Below, one piece after another: positions 19,800-29,889 of a DNA stretch of 38,818 nt (the stretch's first letter is position 1; every line of letters starts with the position of its first letter). Location: the IMG/VR virus record IMGVR_UViG_2651869695_000012; one strand, given 5' to 3'. The notes below the pieces were generated by a model. It saw only the letters and a list, made by a program, of their open reading frames with translations. It searched no databases and had not been told where the DNA came from. Source of the DNA: a virus (taxonomy: Duplodnaviria > Heunggongvirae > Uroviricota > Caudoviricetes). A program made the position numbers and the translations under genes.

Positions 19800-20162
19800 T
19801 CAGTAACGACCGCGCCTTCCGGTAATTTCATACCGGCAAATACCGGACAGCCCGGGGATCGTTATCTGCAGCTGGTTAGCCAGGGAGTTAATCTCAGCGA
19901 CCAACACTGGCTTCGTATAGCGCCATGCCGCCAGCCCTTGTCCACAGAAGCTCACCATATCTTTTTTCTGATCAAACTCATGACACTTCATATTGAGCTG
20001 CGCACTTAAGCTGTTGCGATGCTGAAGTTCTCCGGTGAAGTAGTCATCCAGGACTTTATAGGCTGCATATTTAAATCCGGGGTTTAGCCATGCTGCATAA
20101 TCATAAGCAACAAACTTCCCGCCATATGTTCCACCGTGTACACCGCGCTCAGTAAAAACCAC
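19800..20162 (-). CDS. Hypothetical protein with KilA-N-like motif, possibly a gene remnant
   Basis: 120-aa ORF with only a GTG start and weak RBS; contains YDYAAWLNPGFKYAAY reminiscent of the KilA-N core; occupies the bor/moron slot between Rz and cos. Confidence 0.35.
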   Translation of the reverse strand: MVFTERGVHGGTYGGKFVAYDYAAWLNPGFKYAAYKVLDDYFTGELQHRNSLSAQLNMKCHEFDQKKDMVSFCGQGLAAWRYTKPVLVAEINSLANQLQITIPGLSGICRYEITGRRGRY

Positions 20163-20183: not shown

Positions 20184-20651
20184 CTACTTAATGCGCTGGG
20201 TGCGGATATATTCCTGCGCCCCTTCCAGTTGCTTCTGCATCGTCATCAACCGTTCTCTGAGGGTGAAATAATCCCGTTCAGCGGTGTCTGCCAGTCGGGG
20301 GCTGGTTGCATTATCCATGCTGGTGGGTCCGGTGGCTTCACGCACGGCTGCGGAGCAACTGGCATTGACCCGCAGGCGCTTACGACCAGCGGCAACATCA
20401 GCGCGCAGAGTTTCATTTTCAGTTTTCGCATCGGCTAACTCCTTCGTGTATTTTGCATCGATCGCAGCAACATCACGCTGACGCTGCTGCATGTCAGCGA
20501 TGGTGGCGGTCGCCTGCTTCAGCTCACTGACTTTTTTATCACGCTGTTCTTTGTAGGCGATGGCGTTATCACGGTAATGATTGACCGCCCACGACAGGCA
20601 GACGATGATGCAGATAACCAGAGCGGAGATAATCGCGGTTACTCTGCTCAT
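20184..20651 (-). CDS. Rz: Spanin inner-membrane subunit Rz (i-spanin)
   Basis: Start at ATG 20651 ([31 protein letters not shown]...) near-identical to lambda Rz from memory; follows the endolysin. Confidence 0.9.
20246..20431 (-). CDS. Rz1: Spanin outer-membrane lipoprotein Rz1 (o-spanin), embedded in Rz in the +1 frame
   Basis: 61 aa; lipobox LVVSAC and Pro-rich [30 protein letters not shown] match lambda Rz1 from memory. Confidence 0.85.
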
Positions 20652-21145
20652 TGTTGCCCCCACAAACAGACTTCACGCTCAATCTCACGACGAGTCATCA
20701 GGCCTTTCCATTGCTTACCGCCAGCGTATGTCCAGCGACGTAGCTGGTCACATGCGCCTTTGATATCGCCCTGGTTTATTTTGCGAAGAAGCGTCGATGT
20801 TCTGAAATTGCCAGCACCCACGTTGTAGACGAACGAGTAAAGAGCGCCGCGCGTTGTTTCCGGTATATCGACTTTGATGTACGGGTTAATTTGTCTGGCG
20901 ACCGTGGCAAGGTCTTTATTCAGGAGGGCTTTGCATTCTGCTTCGGTATACGTTTTACCTAGCATGATGTCTTTTCCGGTGTGTCCGTGGCATACAGTCC
21001 ATACGCCAACGATATCTTTGTATGGTATGTAGCTGACACCTTCCAGGCCATCGTCACCACTCGGACCAGTGATGAGCACAGACGCTATGGCAACAGCCCC
21101 ACCACCAATAGCAGCAGCAACAGCCTTGCGTAATGATGGCGACAT
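20648..21145 (-). CDS. R: SAR endolysin (phage lysozyme, P21 R-type)
   Basis: N-terminal Gly/Ala-rich signal-anchor-release segment ([20 protein letters not shown]) followed by a lysozyme core; near-identical to P21 R from memory. Confidence 0.9.
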
Positions 21146-21360
21146 TATTCACCTCTCGCAGCCTTACGCTTATCTTCTTTAATCTTGAAATAAAGGTTTG
21201 TCAGATACGTCAGCAAGCCAAATACCAGACTACCCAGCACACCTATTGCCGCCCACTGTGAGGGCGTGACTTTATCGAGCAACTGTAAAAACCAGTACCC
21301 GGCACTACCTGCTGAGGTGCCATAGGCGACACCCGTTGTTAACTTATCCATGGATTTCAT
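21145..21360 (-). CDS. S: Pinholin (P21 S21-type holin)
   Basis: 71 aa; dual-start MKSMDK; two TM segments; matches S21 from memory; immediately upstream of the SAR endolysin. Confidence 0.85.
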
Positions 21361-21426
21361 AACCCCACCTCGCAGATGCGGGTGCTGTGTAATGGAAATA
21401 AAAAGGCCACCTACGTGGCCACCAGA

Positions 21427-22479
21427 TTATTTCCCCACCAGCTCGTTTATCTCTTTCACTGTCTGGTTAAACCGCTCTGACTCAAGCTCAACACCTAAGG
21501 CCCGACGCCCCAGCGCCATTGCTGCTTTTATTGTGGAACCGGATCCCATAAAAAAATCAGCAACCAGATCACCAGGTCGACTACTGGCATTGATTATTTG
21601 CCGGAGCATATCCGCAGGTTTCTCACACGGATGTTTACCCGGGTAGAACTGAACGGGTTTATGCATCCAGACATCGGTATAAGGCACGGAGACTGATACG
21701 GAGAAATAGCGCCGGAGAGATTTAAACTCATCCAGCAATTCAGAATATTTGCGATTCAGTGAATCATAAGATGCCACCAGCTGGTGGTGTGGTTGTTCCA
21801 GTTGTTGTTCCTGAAACTTCTCTGCCGCTATACGGGAAAACAGTGCCTGTAACTTCCGATAGTCAGCCTCATTCGGCAACTGCCACTGACTGGCACCAAA
21901 CCAGTGGGAAACCATATTTTTCTTACCTGTGGCTTCGGCAATTTGTTTTGCCGTTATACCCAGTTCGGCACGAGCATCCCTGAAATACGAAATCAGCGGT
22001 GCCATTATGTGCTGTTTGAGTTCCCTTTCTTTTGCCGCATAGCCGTCACTTTTGCCGCGATATGGCCCCTGGTAATGTTCAGCAAACAGAACGCGCTCTG
22101 TGGCTGGAAAATATGCACGCAGACTTTCTTTATTACACCCATTCCAACGTCCGGACGGCTTCGCCCAGATGATATGGTTAAGCACGTTGAAACGTTCACG
22201 CATCATGATCTCAATATCAGATGCCAGGCGATGCCCACAGAACAGGTAAAGGCTTCCGGCAGGTTTTAACACCCGCCAGAACTGGGCCAGACAGTGGTCC
22301 AGCCACTTAAGGTAATCTTCGTCCCCTTTCCACTGATTGTCCCAGCCGTTGGGTTTCACCTTGAAGTACGGCGGATCGGTAACAATCAGGTCAATGGAAT
22401 CATCAGGCAGGGACTGAATAAAATGCAGGCAATCAGCGTTGATTAAATCAACACTGTTTATTTTTACAGTATTTTTCAT
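21427..22479 (-). CDS. Orphan DNA methyltransferase (beta-class N6-adenine or N4-cytosine)
   Basis: 350 aa; motif IV LIVTDPPYF near the N-terminus and motif I FxGxG (DFFMGSGSTIKAA) near the C-terminus; no adjacent restriction endonuclease ORF. Confidence 0.85.
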   Translation of the reverse strand: MKNTVKINSVDLINADCLHFIQSLPDDSIDLIVTDPPYFKVKPNGWDNQWKGDEDYLKWLDHCLAQFWRVLKPAGSLYLFCGHRLASDIEIMMRERFNVLNHIIWAKPSGRWNGCNKESLRAYFPATERVLFAEHYQGPYRGKSDGYAAKERELKQHIMAPLISYFRDARAELGITAKQIAEATGKKNMVSHWFGASQWQLPNEADYRKLQALFSRIAAEKFQEQQLEQPHHQLVASYDSLNRKYSELLDEFKSLRRYFSVSVSVPYTDVWMHKPVQFYPGKHPCEKPADMLRQIINASSRPGDLVADFFMGSGSTIKAAMALGRRALGVELESERFNQTVKEINELVGK

Positions 22480-22629
22480 GGATCAGTAAGCGTAACTCTG
22501 GTAGGCTCACTCTGCTTTTGCGCTAAAGCAGTGGGCCGTGGTTCGCTTGTGACCAGTAAGCATGAGCGAATGGCTGGCAGGTGCTACCAACACCCACCAG
22601 CCGCCCATTTTCACAGCAGGAAACCGCCA

Positions 22630-22857
22630 TTACTGGCAGCGTCTGAATTTATTCCCGTACCCGCCGTTATCCTTCGCCAGACCCGCCAGAACTAACTGAG
22701 TCAGTATTAACTGGCACCGGGCTTCGCTTACTCCGGTAGTTCTCGTCATCATGCGTGGCGTTACCCACTTGTCAGCAGGTAAGAAATGAAGGACTGCGGC
22801 GGCGGTTTCTGTCATATCTTGCTGTTTTAGCATGTCTTTTTCCCTTCTGGTTAACAT
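22630..22857 (-). CDS. Small hypothetical protein with possible HTH, upstream of the methyltransferase
   Basis: 75-aa ORF with several candidate ATG starts (22857, 22833, 22815); helix-turn-helix-like VTPRMMTRTTGVSEARCQLILTQL; weak RBS. Confidence 0.3.
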   Translation of the reverse strand: MLTRREKDMLKQQDMTETAAAVLHFLPADKWVTPRMMTRTTGVSEARCQLILTQLVLAGLAKDNGGYGNKFRRCQ

Positions 22858-23103
22858 GACATACCAATAACTCTTGTCTAAAAAGCCAGCAAGATAAAAA
22901 GTCAGTATTCACGACCACCAGCGTGTTTACTGTACTGCACCAGGTTTACAGGTACAAAAAAACCGCTCAGCGGCGGGTTTAAGTTGTGTGGCGAAGTAAC
23001 CACTCTTAACAGCATATTTGATTTTTTACGATTGTAAACGGTTGATTATTCATCTCCAATAAAAATAATTGTGTGGGTATGCCCTTAACAATGGATAAGA
23101 AAC

Positions 23104-23550
23104 ATGAATAAAATGACTGTACTATTACTTAGCGCAACTATCATTTCAGGTTGTACTTCTTCCGTACCATTGATAAAGAAAACTCAATCAGGAAAACCTG
23201 AGGGGGTTTATCAAAATACGACAAAAGATAAAGTCAAAGATGCCCTTGTGAATTACTGCAATAGTAGAGGGTTGATAATTTACAACGCGGATAACAGCAG
23301 TGTTATATGTGGTAAAGAACTGGAAGGCGGCTCTGCTGTTTTTGGACAAATGTTAATCGGCAATGCCTATTCAACAACCCCGGTATCAAAAGTCAGATTT
23401 ACTATCGCTCAAGTTAATAACGATACAAAAGTGTGGGCCGATATGTGGATGGAAACTCAAATGGCAATGGGGCAAGTACAACAAATGTCTATAACAGACA
23501 ACGCAAGCAAAAACACTATCCAACAACGTCTTGATGAATTAAAACCTTAA
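23104..23550 (+). CDS. Lipoprotein moron, antisense to the late operon
   Basis: 148 aa; signal peptide with lipobox (IISGC); AT-rich island between Q and the methyltransferase; own RBS and start on the plus strand. Confidence 0.6.
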   Translation: MNKMTVLLLSATIISGCTSSVPLIKKTQSGKPEGVYQNTTKDKVKDALVNYCNSRGLIIYNADNSSVICGKELEGGSAVFGQMLIGNAYSTTPVSKVRFTIAQVNNDTKVWADMWMETQMAMGQVQQMSITDNASKNTIQQRLDELKP

Positions 23551-23588
23551 ATAAATTAAATAAAATGGGGAGAATAAATCGACTCCCC
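23546..23588 (-). terminator. Intrinsic terminator just downstream of Q (tR'-like) and just past the convergent lipoprotein gene
   Basis: Minus-strand read GGGGAG-(10 nt loop)-CUCCCC followed by AUUUUAUUUAAUUUAUUU; ~40 nt after the Q stop. Confidence 0.55.
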
Positions 23589-23630
23589 ACACATTAAACT
23601 GATTCAATTACCCCCTCAATAAGAGGTCTT

Positions 23631-24011
23631 CTAACGATCCATCTCTAGCTCAATTTCTAACATCATTAACATGCCATCAACTACACCTTCAGCCTTTTGC
23701 AATAAACGCCCAACCCAGCAATCAGAACGCCCATGTTTACGGGCAAGCGCCATAAAAGTCATACCACCTACATAATAATCCACTAATAAATCGTGCAAAT
23801 CGCTGTTGTTCTTTTTCAGGCGAGCCATGCATCCACAAATGATCATCGCGTCATCGTCACAACATTGCGGGCGGGATTTTACTTTTGAAGGGATTAGTCC
23901 TTTAAATCCTGCAGCAATAGACGACCAGGTGACATCCTCGTGATTATTTGCCACCCATGCCCCCCAACGTTCAAGAACCATTTGAATATCACGCATCAAC
24001 TTTCTCCACAA
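23631..24011 (-). CDS. Late-gene antiterminator Q (small, DLP12 quuD-like)
   Basis: 126 aa; Cys cluster [17 protein letters not shown] suggests a zinc site; position immediately upstream of the terminator and lysis cassette. Confidence 0.7.
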
Positions 24012-24013
24012 AA

Positions 24014-25009
24014 TCAGGCCAGCACGCCAATTGCCAGCGCACGATCGATAAAACGAAATATCAGCTCCAGCTGGGAGCCATACTTCTCTTCAAATGCCAC
24101 GGTATCCGCATGCAGCTCGTCGTGATGCTTTCTGCACAAAGGCAACACAAAAAGGTCATGCGCTTTTGTTCCCATTCCACCCTGACCGTGACCTATCAGG
24201 TGGTGGGGATCATCAGCGGGCTTTCCACAACATGCACACGGCTGTGTCTTAACCCAGCGCGTGTACTTTTCATTAACCCAGCGGCGACGTTTTGGGCGTA
24301 ACATAAAAGACTCCGGCGACTCCGGATCCACTTTCAGCGCCAGCACCTTTTTCGCCTTATCCTGGATGATGCTGGTGGCAGGAACCGAAGGCACAAGGTC
24401 ACTTTCCCGGGTAACAGACGGCACAACAGGCTTCGGTAATCTCAGTGCCTTACGGGCTGCACTTTCCGGTAAGGCATCCGCCAGATCATTACGAATCAGC
24501 CACCAGCACAGTTCCGGCATTGTCACAACGTGACTGTCATCAAAACCGAGATCCCGACGCACAACAGACAACACCCAGCGGGCACAGTTATCCGTTGCCA
24601 TTGATTCCAGCCGTTCCGTGAACTGATCGCGCAGCTGGTTATCGCAGTGCCAGCACAGACGGATTGCACCCGGAGCGTGTCGCATTGTGGTCATGTTCTC
24701 GCTGTGCCAGTCGGAATGAGGCCACTGGCAGCCTTTTTCACGAAGTAACCAGCTTTCAAGACATTCCACGCCACCAGCACGACGGATCACTGCCTCATTG
24801 CGGAACACGGCCCGAACGGCAGGATCATCCGCCAGCGGTTGTGATGCCGCCGGAACGGCACCACTGGCGAAAGATGAATAACGCTCCGGCTCAGGCTCCA
24901 GCAGGACACGCCCCTGCATAAACAGGGGCATCAGCTCTGAACCTGGCCTGAACAATACGATCCCCATACGCGGGGCAATTTCAGGGGTCAGTAGTGCTCT
25001 CACGGTCAC
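24014..25009 (-). CDS. DUF968-like phage protein with C-terminal HNH-like zinc motif
   Basis: 331 aa; C-terminal [43 protein letters not shown] (Cys-x2-Cys ... HH ... H). Confidence 0.6.
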
Positions 25010-25010
25010 C

Positions 25011-25820
25011 TCAATGAACGGTATCGAGCAGCTTTAACAGCTCAGAGAATCGGGATTCGAAGAAATGCGGCTGCGTCTCGCGCGGATTTGCGGGACTGGT
25101 GATGTTCTTGCCGAACATGCAGCCTTTCGCTGTCAGCGACCAGAATTTTTTGATGTTGTTAATCGCGGTACGGCTGTATCGTTCGCGCTGCTCGACGATC
25201 CCCAGTTTCACCATCTGGTGATATGCCTGATTAGCCGTCAGGCGTATACCATACTGTTTCAGCAGTGCACTCAGTGACAGTGTCGGGCGACTTGAGCCAT
25301 CGTGTGCATCAGCAGGAGCATCAATGGCATAGCGCGGTGCCAGATTCGGTAAGCCAACAGCCTCCTGGAGTTTCTGACAGGCACCAAGCACTGAAGAGTT
25401 AGACAGGTTTAACTCCCGGCGCATAAAGTCCAGCAGGATCACGCCAGCCTGCATCTTGTCAGCAGCCTGTCCGGATAATTTTTCCGGTGCGCTGGTTACC
25501 ATATCGAAAGTACGGATCACCTTCAGATGGAATGACGGGCTGATCCACATTGCATAGGCATACACCAGTTCCTTGCAGACATACGTTCCCCGTTCATTTC
25601 CCCCATGAATCACACTCACCGGGTCAACACCCAAATTCTGGGTGTTGGTCAATTCATGAACAAGCTCAACAGTTTGTTGGCTGGAAAGAAACTTTCCCGG
25701 CTCCTTGGTTCTGGCATTTGCACCAGATGCTACTGCTGCGCGATGCAGATCGTTCAGGCTGTAACGCCCATAAGCATCACGACGAACTTCAATACCATCA
25801 ATGACCATCAGATTATTCAT
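25011..25820 (-). CDS. KilA-N domain protein (antirepressor/regulatory family)
   Basis: Start at ATG 25820 with GGAG RBS; N-terminal domain with GTYVCKELVYAYAMWISPSFHLKVIRTF, the KilA-N signature. Confidence 0.7.
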   Translation of the reverse strand: MNNLMVIDGIEVRRDAYGRYSLNDLHRAAVASGANARTKEPGKFLSSQQTVELVHELTNTQNLGVDPVSVIHGGNERGTYVCKELVYAYAMWISPSFHLKVIRTFDMVTSAPEKLSGQAADKMQAGVILLDFMRRELNLSNSSVLGACQKLQEAVGLPNLAPRYAIDAPADAHDGSSRPTLSLSALLKQYGIRLTANQAYHQMVKLGIVEQRERYSRTAINNIKKFWSLTAKGCMFGKNITSPANPRETQPHFFESRFSELLKLLDTVH

Positions 25821-25839
25821 ACTTCGTTTCTCCTCTTGA

Positions 25840-26229
25840 TCAGGCGGCTGCACCCGCCGTTTTCTCGTACTTACTGATAGTGATCTCGACCTTCCCTTTC
25901 GGGATAACCGGTCCCCACTCCACCAGCATTCTTTTCACCTGACTGTCGTCTTCCCACACACCCGCATGGGTCAGGGCGTCAAACAGCGCCTTGTTATAGT
26001 TGTCCAGATCGCGGATCCGGTTATCCGGAGGAAACAACACGATCTCCACTGAAGCAGGTGCCGACGTTGGTTTCGGCAGACGACGTAACTGCTCAACTAT
26101 TGCTGCGCACGCCGCGCTCTGGAATTTTCGCCCCGCCGAGCTTATCAGGCTCTTACCAGCAAACGCCCCTTTGTTGGGGTGTCGCCAGTACGTGTTCACG
26201 CTGGGCGGAAAAGGCAGGATCAGCTTCAT
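25840..26229 (-). CDS. rusA: RusA-family Holliday junction resolvase
   Basis: 129 aa; LPFPPSVNTYWRH and DLDNYNKALFDALT motifs typical of RusA. Confidence 0.85.
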   Translation of the reverse strand: MKLILPFPPSVNTYWRHPNKGAFAGKSLISSAGRKFQSAACAAIVEQLRRLPKPTSAPASVEIVLFPPDNRIRDLDNYNKALFDALTHAGVWEDDSQVKRMLVEWGPVIPKGKVEITISKYEKTAGAAA

Positions 26230-28732: not shown

Positions 28733-29889
28733 TTGCGCCCCCTTACCTCTGAAGGGTTCAGCGACAAATTTATGAGGCAGGCCAGCGCCGAAGCATCATT
28801 AATATAATCATATAAGCTAACAGCCAGCGGAGATTCAGCTTTTGCCAACATAGGATAAAGCTGCTGCAGCCAGACCTTGTGGATTACCGACAGGTGGGAG
28901 TAAAGCACGCTGGCGTTATCTGCGGCATCGCTCAGCGTGGATGGCTTTGAAAGCAGTTTTTCCATCTGGTTAAAGGCATTGATGTATGCCTCTTTGAACC
29001 GGGCAGCACGTTTACCCGTGAAACCCATAGCAAGAAACGCAAAACCGTCTCGTGTGATTTGATAGCAAGGGAGCTTGCGTGTACCACCGTTCGGTTGATT
29101 TACCGAAATCGATGTCTCCGCAAAATTGCGGGCACAAAACTCAGGGGAACAATCCAGAGTGCGGATCTTTTTCAGCACATCGTCGTGACGCTTGGAGAAG
29201 AAGTTGGCAACAGCCAAAGAAGTGGTAACGGCCTGGCCGTTGTCAATGGTGATTTCAGGTTGAGTGAGGGCTTGGATCGTAGCCATGATGGCAGCCTCCG
29301 TTGACAGTGAAAAACTTCCACCACCGGAAACGCCAATTTCACTGGTGGTGAACTGGACGGGGTTGGCGTAACCGGCGTCAACGGAGACCGGCGCACCTTT
29401 CGGTGCCCCCGCCCAGCCCACCATAATCTGGATGTGAGCAAATGCGGACGATAAAAAAGACGCTGGCGCGTCATACATCGCCGTTGACAATTTCAGGACG
29501 CCAATCCCGGCACCCGCTTTATAAGGTGCCTGAACAGTGTAACGTCCCGGAATTGCAGAATCAATATGCTGGTGGTCCTTCACACTCAACAAAATCACGC
29601 CTGAATTTCCACAAAGGACTAAAGCACTCATGCGGGTAGTCTTTGCGAAGATAGATAACGCGCTGTGTTTCTGGCTCCCAACGAATAACATGAACATAAA
29701 GTCCTCTTCCGTCACGAAACCAGCGGTTAAGTTCCTGCACAACTCGCCCCCCACAGTCAGGTAAAGTTCTCTGTGGTTACTTACAGCCAGGTGATTTGGT
29801 AATCTGCATTCATGCCGTAACAACAGGTGTGCAGCGACACTGACCACCAGCTGTTGCGACAAACGGTTATTTGCCGTTAAACTGTTCAT
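28729..29889 (-). CDS. Protein with C-terminal Rha-like phage regulatory domain; possible internal start at 29286
   Basis: 386-aa ORF whose ATG at 29889 overlaps the CII-like stop (ATGA); C-terminal half carries a Rha-like segment (VTTSLAVANFFSKRHDDVLKKIRTLD); strong GGAGG RBS precedes internal ATG 29286. Confidence 0.5.
   Translation of the reverse strand: MNSLTANNRLSQQLVVSVAAHLLLRHECRLPNHLAVSNHRELYLTVGGELCRNLTAGFVTEEDFMFMLFVGSQKHSALSIFAKTTRMSALVLCGNSGVILLSVKDHQHIDSAIPGRYTVQAPYKAGAGIGVLKLSTAMYDAPASFLSSAFAHIQIMVGWAGAPKGAPVSVDAGYANPVQFTTSEIGVSGGGSFSLSTEAAIMATIQALTQPEITIDNGQAVTTSLAVANFFSKRHDDVLKKIRTLDCSPEFCARNFAETSISVNQPNGGTRKLPCYQITRDGFAFLAMGFTGKRAARFKEAYINAFNQMEKLLSKPSTLSDAADNASVLYSHLSVIHKVWLQQLYPMLAKAESPLAVSLYDYINDASALACLINLSLNPSEVRGRK

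Follow-up and report, generated by a model that had tools for sequence, protein, structure and literature searches.

A phage gene for a DNA methyltransferase that has no endonuclease beside it raises two questions, namely what its product modifies and how a lysogen can tolerate it. We addressed both for a 350-residue reading frame in the late region of a caudovirus sequence of 38,818 nucleotides, the whole of which is referred to below as the window.

Family and expected specificity of the methyltransferase

The coding sequence lies on the minus strand (21427..22479), running from an ATG at 22479 to a stop at 21427, and was assigned from the open reading frame itself, Pfam PF01555, the PADLOC model MTase_II and identity to orf56 of phage cdtI. 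A longer N-terminus or an upstream coupling ORF was ruled out, as an in-frame TGA is found 6 nt 5' of the ATG and no start codon lies between it and the prior stop. The translated protein carries the catalytic motif IV, DPPY, at residues 35–38 (22366..22377, minus strand) and the AdoMet-binding motif I, FMGSG, at residues 310–314 (21538..21552, minus strand), the latter inside the segment DFFMGSGST. Because motif IV is N-terminal to motif I, the order is that of the beta class, as the original prediction had stated, and the Pfam profile N6_N4_Mtase (PF01555) agrees with this assignment: it matches residues 29–341 over profile positions 1–220 of 221 with 145.9 bits (cut-off 26.7; E = 2e-42), which is far above chance level. 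The PADLOC model (PDLC03265) matches at E = 3e-152. The order is the reverse of that in Dam-type, GATC-specific alpha-class enzymes, in which motif I precedes motif IV, and the ORF shows DPPY and PF01555 only, rather than the DPPW motif and MT-A70 domain of enzymes of the phiPA8 type.

The gene is already known and annotated, and belongs to the M.EcoGII family, of which it is a very common prophage representative. M.EcoGII was described together with M.EcoGI from E. coli O104:H4 C227-11 (PMC5778455) and methylates adenine in any DNA context, and RNA more weakly (Murray et al. 2018, PMC5778455). It is prophage-encoded and unexpressed in the lysogen, and its constitutive production slows growth (PMC5778455). 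The window protein resembles it in length (349–350 aa), beta-class motif order and carriage by lambdoid prophages. Compared with the M.EcoGII sequence of Supplementary Table S1 of the SUPREM paper (PMC11551740), which was machine-read from a PDF and likely contains reading errors, 281 of 349 residues are identical (80–81%), about 69 differ, and the two proteins are colinear with two single-residue gaps. The window protein is nearer the reconstructed ancestor Anc291 (88.6%) than M.EcoGII itself, and shares 86.3% identity with the ancestor Anc289. Its target-recognition domain, a predicted four-helix segment at residues 160–237, is 77% identical to that of M.EcoGII (18 of 78 residues differ); this value matches the rest of the protein and indicates that no domain swap took place. 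In the dimer-interface segments (residues 97–110 and 116–140, as defined in PMC11551740), 36 or 37 of 39 positions agree with M.EcoGII; those that differ are N98 (S in M.EcoGII, N in Anc291), V130 (I in M.EcoGII) and possibly I103, which is probably a PDF reading error. At position 179 the protein has Q, which it shares with the M.EcoGII clade.

Since characterised relatives bracket the window protein, non-specific adenine methylation is its best-supported activity, and we infer this lack of specificity by homology. In enzymes of this class, the sequence does not reveal the specificity, and 20% of the residues differ from M.EcoGII. The enzyme could instead be a sequence-specific orphan adenine methyltransferase with a discrete motif, guarding the phage against one restriction system or regulating phage genes. 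This would agree with the name that databases give, among others, to the exact protein, “site-specific DNA-methyltransferase (adenine-specific)”, with the divergence from M.EcoGII, which extends into the target-recognition domain, and with the nearest solved structures, which are of site-specific enzymes such as M.RsrI, M.MboIIA and CcrM. We nevertheless consider it rather unlikely. The database names are automatic family labels, and “site-specific” is probably wrong for the family. The target-recognition domain shows neither replacement nor a change in length, and the solved structures match the catalytic core only, at E ~1e-24 or weaker, and were set aside as a guide to specificity. Moreover, the bracketing members M.EcoGII, Anc291, Anc289 and Anc284 all methylate DNA and RNA, as do all the reconstructed ancestors (PMC11551740), and the three enzymes examined for site preference, M.EcoGII, Anc291 and Anc284/SUPREM, act on RNA with no discernible motif (for the latter two, PMC11551740). 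For a non-specific enzyme, the recognition motif and REBASE-style motif call that the original prediction anticipated are not the expected outcome. As the characterised relative has no recognition motif, taking the failure to find an attributable motif as a refutation, as was proposed there, would wrongly refute a true function.

A structured leader and a small ORF for a predicted winged helix

Directly upstream of the methyltransferase AUG lies a conserved segment of about 130 nt (22480..22611, minus strand), which folding, a covariance model and covariation identify as a leader that is apparently an undescribed structured RNA. Its predicted fold (MFE −55.4 kcal/mol, z = −3.67) comprises a three-way junction, P1–P3, at about 22607–22532, followed by the hairpins P4 (22531–22512) and P5 (22511–22485). 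P1 is formed by UGGGC/GCCCA, P2 is a hairpin of 12–14 bp, and P3 completes the junction. In an unguided MAFFT alignment of 45 distinct sequences, many of which are closely related and one of which provided the structure, double-sided changes were present at 19 pairs, compared with 9.9 +/− 1.8 in shuffled alignments and at most 13 when the structures were slid by 1–3 columns. RNAalifold independently finds P1 and P2, and recovers only a partial fold from the raw MAFFT alignment because a register shift of 1 nt in P2 puts rows out of alignment. Re-alignment with the covariance model corrected this shift; 91.7% of cells then pair and 17 pairs show double changes, against 8.6 in shuffles and at most 10 with slid structures. 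In Proteus and Gilliamella, the P2 helix is formed anew by different sequences, and the P3 pair 49–73 is seen as CG, AU, UA and UG. P5, and partly P4, are not maintained in Proteus and Morganella (Morganellaceae), and we therefore claim only P1–P3 as robust. Within P2, G-U pairs outnumber A-C mismatches by 29 to 7, and the covariance model scores 146 bits on the sense strand versus at most 19 bits on the reverse strand; together, these values point to an RNA that is read in the methyltransferase sense.

The leader is closely tied to the methyltransferase gene. The covariance model gives a single match per locus that always abuts the methyltransferase start, at 50 loci with E < 1e-11, and five further Photorhabdus loci match weakly. 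A pattern-first scan of IMG/VR placed the start of a methyltransferase homolog 129–131 nt downstream at 114 of the 118 sites that had room for it; the four exceptions keep P2 alone, followed by other cargo. Genes that are 93–95% identical to M.EcoGII bear the same leader, together with the small ORF described below. A Shine–Dalgarno sequence before the methyltransferase AUG is absent in every group. A scan of 21300–23700 against Rfam 15 returned no family at E <= 1 and only chance-level opposite-strand matches at E <= 10, and a search of a literature library found no paper that links EcoGII with a leader, UTR or riboswitch. The possibility that the segment is a small coding ORF was rejected, as its 33-codon ATG frame stops after 7 codons in one related locus (L005) and its conservation is not codon-like.

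Upstream of the leader is a small ORF (22630..22833, minus strand; PHROG 331), which starts at an ATG at 22833 with a good ribosome-binding site and encodes 67 residues; the longest reading, from 22857, gives 75 residues. Of 79 loci, 58 have a homolog 100–150 bp ahead of the methyltransferase gene, in genera ranging from Escherichia to Photorhabdus, Xenorhabdus and Proteus. It is missing from the other 21, most of which keep the leader and the methyltransferase, and about 13 loci of this kind are among the matches of the leader model. The leader is more conserved than the small ORF itself. Searches of the small protein against Pfam, NCBIfam and PADLOC gave no match, PHROG 331 is listed as of unknown function, and NCBI names its relatives “TrmB family transcriptional regulator”. 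An AlphaFold (AF2) model (pLDDT 88) has an H-H-H-beta-beta topology, and its best fold matches are stand-alone winged-helix domains with weak E-values, which suggests that the protein is a generic stand-alone winged helix. Its reading as a Zalpha domain was rejected: the best superposition reaches TM 0.84, but at E ~4e-3 and 15% identity, and the residues that we take to be the Zalpha contacts, N173, Y177 and W195, are absent. The stop codon of the small ORF lies in the loop of a terminator-like hairpin, T2 (22612..22640, minus strand), which has a 7-bp stem (−11.9 kcal/mol) and is followed by a U-rich run. T2 directly precedes the leader; an equivalent hairpin with a T-run is found in other loci, and is stronger in several of them.

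The small protein also bears on what the enzyme modifies. Its main target could be RNA, such as rRNA or mRNA, or it could act in gene regulation, with the winged-helix protein serving as a specificity or activity subunit. The phiPA8 pair M.EcoPA8orf6770P and PNB-2 offers a precedent, in which a prophage enzyme resembling adenine methyltransferases, encoded just downstream of a small winged-HTH protein, is reported to prefer 16S rRNA, and induction frequency is altered (PMC10810198). That enzyme is of another family, however, with a DPPW motif and an MT-A70 domain, and is encoded in another genome region, at gp5–gp7 rather than in a late operon (PMC10810198). M.EcoGII and its relatives do methylate RNA in vitro, and the small ORF directly precedes the gene in many genera, but M.EcoGII alone is fully active on DNA, the small ORF is dispensed with in more than a quarter of the loci, and T2 stands between it and the methyltransferase. 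Furthermore, Q at position 179 is the state tied to lower RNA activity. A primary role in RNA modification or gene regulation is thus quite unlikely in our view, and we retain non-specific modification of DNA as the expected activity.

A parallel to the arrangement as a whole is provided by com-mom of phage Mu, a late, lysogen-silent and host-toxic DNA-modification gene with a very small ORF and a folded mRNA at its translation start. Mom is an acetyltransferase-like enzyme and Com a zinc-finger RNA binder. In both cases, a very small ORF and a folded stretch of mRNA come before a modification gene; there is no kinship in sequence or fold, as the module in the window combines an AdoMet methyltransferase with a winged helix. 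An EcoSal review groups Mom and M.EcoGII together as toxic modification functions that are silent in lysogens (PMC12707154). We hypothesise that the small ORF, the leader and the methyltransferase are linked by regulation, in the manner of the translational gating of com-mom. More specifically, and tentatively, the leader RNA may act in cis as a gate on the translation or processing of a non-specific methyltransferase that is toxic to the host, perhaps with the 67-residue protein in most loci; it would then do the work of com-mom with unrelated components, a possibility that we hold at somewhat less than even chances.

A conserved module between Q and the lysis genes

The methyltransferase is encoded on the late strand, with Q on one side and the lysis cassette on the other, in agreement with the original prediction. 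Upstream lies the late antiterminator gene Q (23631..24011; Pfam PF06530, E = 2e-51; PHROG 79). Directly downstream is an S21-type holin gene (21145..21360; PF04971), which forms part of a lysis cassette (20184..21360; assigned from the ORF list and Pfam, as are the other genes in it) with a lysozyme (20648..21145) and Rz (20184..20663) with an embedded Rz1 (20246..20431). All of these genes are on the minus strand. The methyltransferase is not directly beside Q, as ORFs at 23104–23550 (plus strand) and 22630–22857 (minus strand) intervene. The latter is the longest reading of the small winged-helix ORF, and the former (23104..23550; 148 aa; PHROG 3152) encodes a lipoprotein-like protein in a variable slot between Q and the module, which holds other genes in cdtI, mEp460 and Ayreon.

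The original prediction had further placed the gene in a “moron” slot for cargo, and this part did not hold up. Terminator-like sites flank the small ORF, leader and methyltransferase on both sides. T1 (22955..22974, minus strand), found by a terminator scan and by phage comparison, marks the upstream edge, and T3 (21396..21420, minus strand) resembles an intrinsic terminator between the methyltransferase stop and holin S (GGCCAC-GUAG-GUGGCC followed by U5; −12.3 kcal/mol, z = −3.4) and is the strongest of the three hairpins. The record of phage Ayreon annotates terminators at the positions of T1 and T3. Homology among five phages with differing Q alleles and upstream genes starts exactly at the T1 hairpin, so that T1 to T3 make up one conserved module. 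The phages cdtI, mEp460, Ayreon, SfV, PhiR40_1 and phiP27 and the Stx2a and Stx2c phages share the order small ORF, methyltransferase, terminator and holin with the window, but differ from it in the Q allele and in what lies between Q and the module. Stx phages carry tRNA genes and stx as an insertion that separates the methyltransferase from the lysis genes, which is not the case in the window, where no tRNA gene was found; in the Stx2a phage 1447, for example, the same module lies upstream of ileZ-argN-argO-stx2AB. The recurrence of the module beside different Q alleles and upstream of stx cargo indicates that the variable slots flank it, and the tRNA-stx cargo of Stx2 phages lies downstream of it.

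A consensus scan found no convincing sigma-70 promoter just upstream of the methyltransferase. The late promoter pR' was not located: the scan gave two weak options, TTGGAG-17-TACAAT at 23058–23031, upstream of T1, and a promoter near the end of Q, upstream of a hairpin at 23588–23569, and comparison among phages did not separate them. A comparative paper on pR' of Stx phages makes no mention of the methyltransferase.

The gene is widespread. The window protein is 100% identical to cdtI orf56, annotated as “DNA methylase”, and at the DNA level the gene is 97–99% identical to that gene and to the likewise annotated genes of mEp460 (053), Ayreon, SfV (orf48) and PhiR40_1, among others. At E <= 1e-40, 95 phage records contained homologs, among them phiP27, Stx2a and Stx2c phages, N15 (gene 52), phiKO2 and VHML, and the gene was found in 1266 of 5426 complete E. 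coli genomes. The exact protein occurs on at least 1000 contigs, and its cluster has 4060 members. Gene order is the same in the induced or isolated phages cdtI, mEp460, Ayreon, PhiR40_1 and Stx2a_1447. An enzyme of the M.EcoGII family is sold commercially, and M.EcoGII is used as a reagent for chromatin footprinting and RNA labelling. It is very improbable that the gene is an inactive relic in a decaying prophage: M.EcoGI and M.EcoGII are inactive in their native lysogens, but the ORF is intact with all its motifs, it is this abundant, it is carried by phages isolated or induced as viable particles, and cloned M.EcoGII is highly active.

The methyltransferase is an orphan and has no conserved Type II restriction-modification partner. 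A survey of 84 loci (80 species-representative loci and four phage records) found Q, DUF968/YdfU and RusA as recurrent neighbours upstream and holin, lysozyme and Rz downstream, and no nuclease was conserved beside the methyltransferase across these related loci. The PADLOC models of defence systems gave no match among the neighbouring genes. The claim that no endonuclease neighbours the gene thus stands with one qualification, which is that a nin-region gene 1.5 kb upstream, beyond Q (24014..25009, minus strand), encodes a DUF968/YdfU-family protein labelled “HNH endonuclease” in PHROGs. This gene was rejected as the cognate endonuclease, and the adjacent partner that was sought on re-annotation was not found; DUF968/YdfU is unlinked to the methyltransferase and is present in 187 phage records, including those of Vibrio phages in which the methyltransferase has distant relatives at most. 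That the protein is the modification half of a restriction-modification system with an overlooked endonuclease is next to negligible, since the PHROGs label and the PADLOC classification as a Type II methyltransferase, which would favour it, are set against a DUF968 gene that itself has no PADLOC match and is missing from many methyltransferase loci, against immediate neighbours that are the 67-residue winged-helix ORF and the holin, and against a non-specific methyltransferase that would have no meaningful cognate endonuclease.

Proposed role in the phage cycle

Taken together, these results make it likely that, late in the cycle and in dependence on Q, the locus yields a burst of non-specific adenine methyltransferase, which modifies phage DNA before packaging, blunts restriction by the next host and is kept off in the lysogen. 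The product would be an AdoMet-using N6-adenine methyltransferase that acts in essentially any sequence context, probably as a homodimer. Its gene, upstream of holin S, would be among the first of the Q-dependent late operon. With terminator-like hairpins on both sides and no convincing promoter of its own, the gene is expected to be silent in the lysogen, held off by the terminators and probably also by the leader, and it would be transcribed only after induction, through read-through by Q-modified RNA polymerase. An AUG that lacks a Shine–Dalgarno sequence and lies behind a folded leader, which in most loci follows the small winged-helix gene, probably adds post-transcriptional control of an enzyme whose unrestrained expression does harm. 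In this scheme, phage DNA would acquire broad m6A modification as it replicates, before it is packaged, and the modification would blunt adenine-sensitive Type I, II and III restriction in the next host. We infer late-only expression and an anti-restriction role here; expression restricted to induction and protection of progeny DNA have likewise been proposed for M.EcoGII (PMC5778455; EcoSal review, PMC12707154). Heavy m6A modification also exposes the phage to m6A-dependent Type IV enzymes, which makes the net benefit host-dependent.

For the prediction of host range, the gene would therefore count both ways, as escape from classical restriction and as exposure to m6A-dependent Type IV enzymes, and methylome studies should expect no motif from this enzyme. 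The gene itself adds nothing new to a well-known family; it is the leader and the small winged-helix ORF that merit modest follow-up. If they control expression, this would explain how lysogens tolerate a dangerous gene, and the two elements may constitute a compact natural off-switch.

Slot between Q and the late module

The late module, which comprises a small ORF, a structured leader RNA and the methyltransferase gene (21427-22479, - strand), is separated from Q by an insertion, a 148-aa ORF on the opposite strand (23104-23550, +; PHROG 3152). This ORF carries a lipoprotein-type signal (..IISGC) and lies beside a promoter-like site at 23042-23069. The original prediction had placed the methyltransferase in the "moron" slot; the real variable position is instead the slot of the 148-aa ORF between Q and the late module, since it is occupied by different reverse-strand genes in other phages.

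For pR'/tR', the late promoter and terminator, there are two candidate arrangements, both on the - strand. The first (23011-23058), which lies upstream of the terminator-like site T1, consists of TTGGAG-17-TACAAT followed by a -10-like TATGCT. The second (23569-23588) is a strong hairpin plus a U-run, 43 nt past the Q stop codon.

Within the module, the small ORF (22630-22833, -; PHROG 331) is predicted to encode a stand-alone winged-helix protein of 67 aa, and its stop codon falls within a terminator-like hairpin, in the loop. Of 79 loci with M.EcoGII-family genes, 58 have a small winged-helix ORF ahead of the gene.

Methyltransferase gene in public databases

The exact methyltransferase protein is publicly named "site-specific DNA-methyltransferase (adenine-specific)". 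In light of the data on M.EcoGII, the label "site-specific" is probably misleading for the entire cluster of 4060 members. E. coli strain E1620 (NZ_CM180509.1, 4415704-4415785) has no more of the gene than its first 82 nt, which are 100% identical to window positions 22398-22479 and are annotated there within a feature named terminase gpA; its prophage has probably undergone a deletion or fusion.

Early-region Rfam matches and the ORF downstream of Rz

Rfam matches to C4 antisense RNA (29341-29428, -; 81 bits) and the Hfq-binding RNA isrK (29453-29529, -; 62 bits) both exceed their gathering scores, suggesting that the prophage's early region carries an antirepressor control element like that of P1/P7. 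Downstream of Rz, a 120-aa ORF (19800-20162, -; PHROGs 10441 and 129) shows similarity to the central part of KilA-N/Rha-type regulators and looks like a partial paralogue of a 280-aa ORF (25011-25853). For its counterpart in phage cdtI, orf60, the annotation reads "start codon not identified".

Leader RNA and hairpin P2

The conserved structured leader (22480-22611, -), which spans about 130 nt and folds into a three-way junction plus hairpins, lies directly 5' of the methyltransferase start codon, an AUG without a Shine-Dalgarno sequence. The leader matched no Rfam family, and its covariation spans Enterobacteriaceae, Morganellaceae and Gilliamella. Leader sites lacking the methyltransferase are found in four IMG/VR contigs (L101, 2062; L139, 13180; L165, 6579; L184, 2200), in which the leader ends right behind hairpin P2 and an unrelated ORF of about 240 aa with tRNA-like DNA replaces the gene. 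This truncation just past P2, followed by other cargo, suggests that P2 is a breakpoint for recombination between late-region modules.
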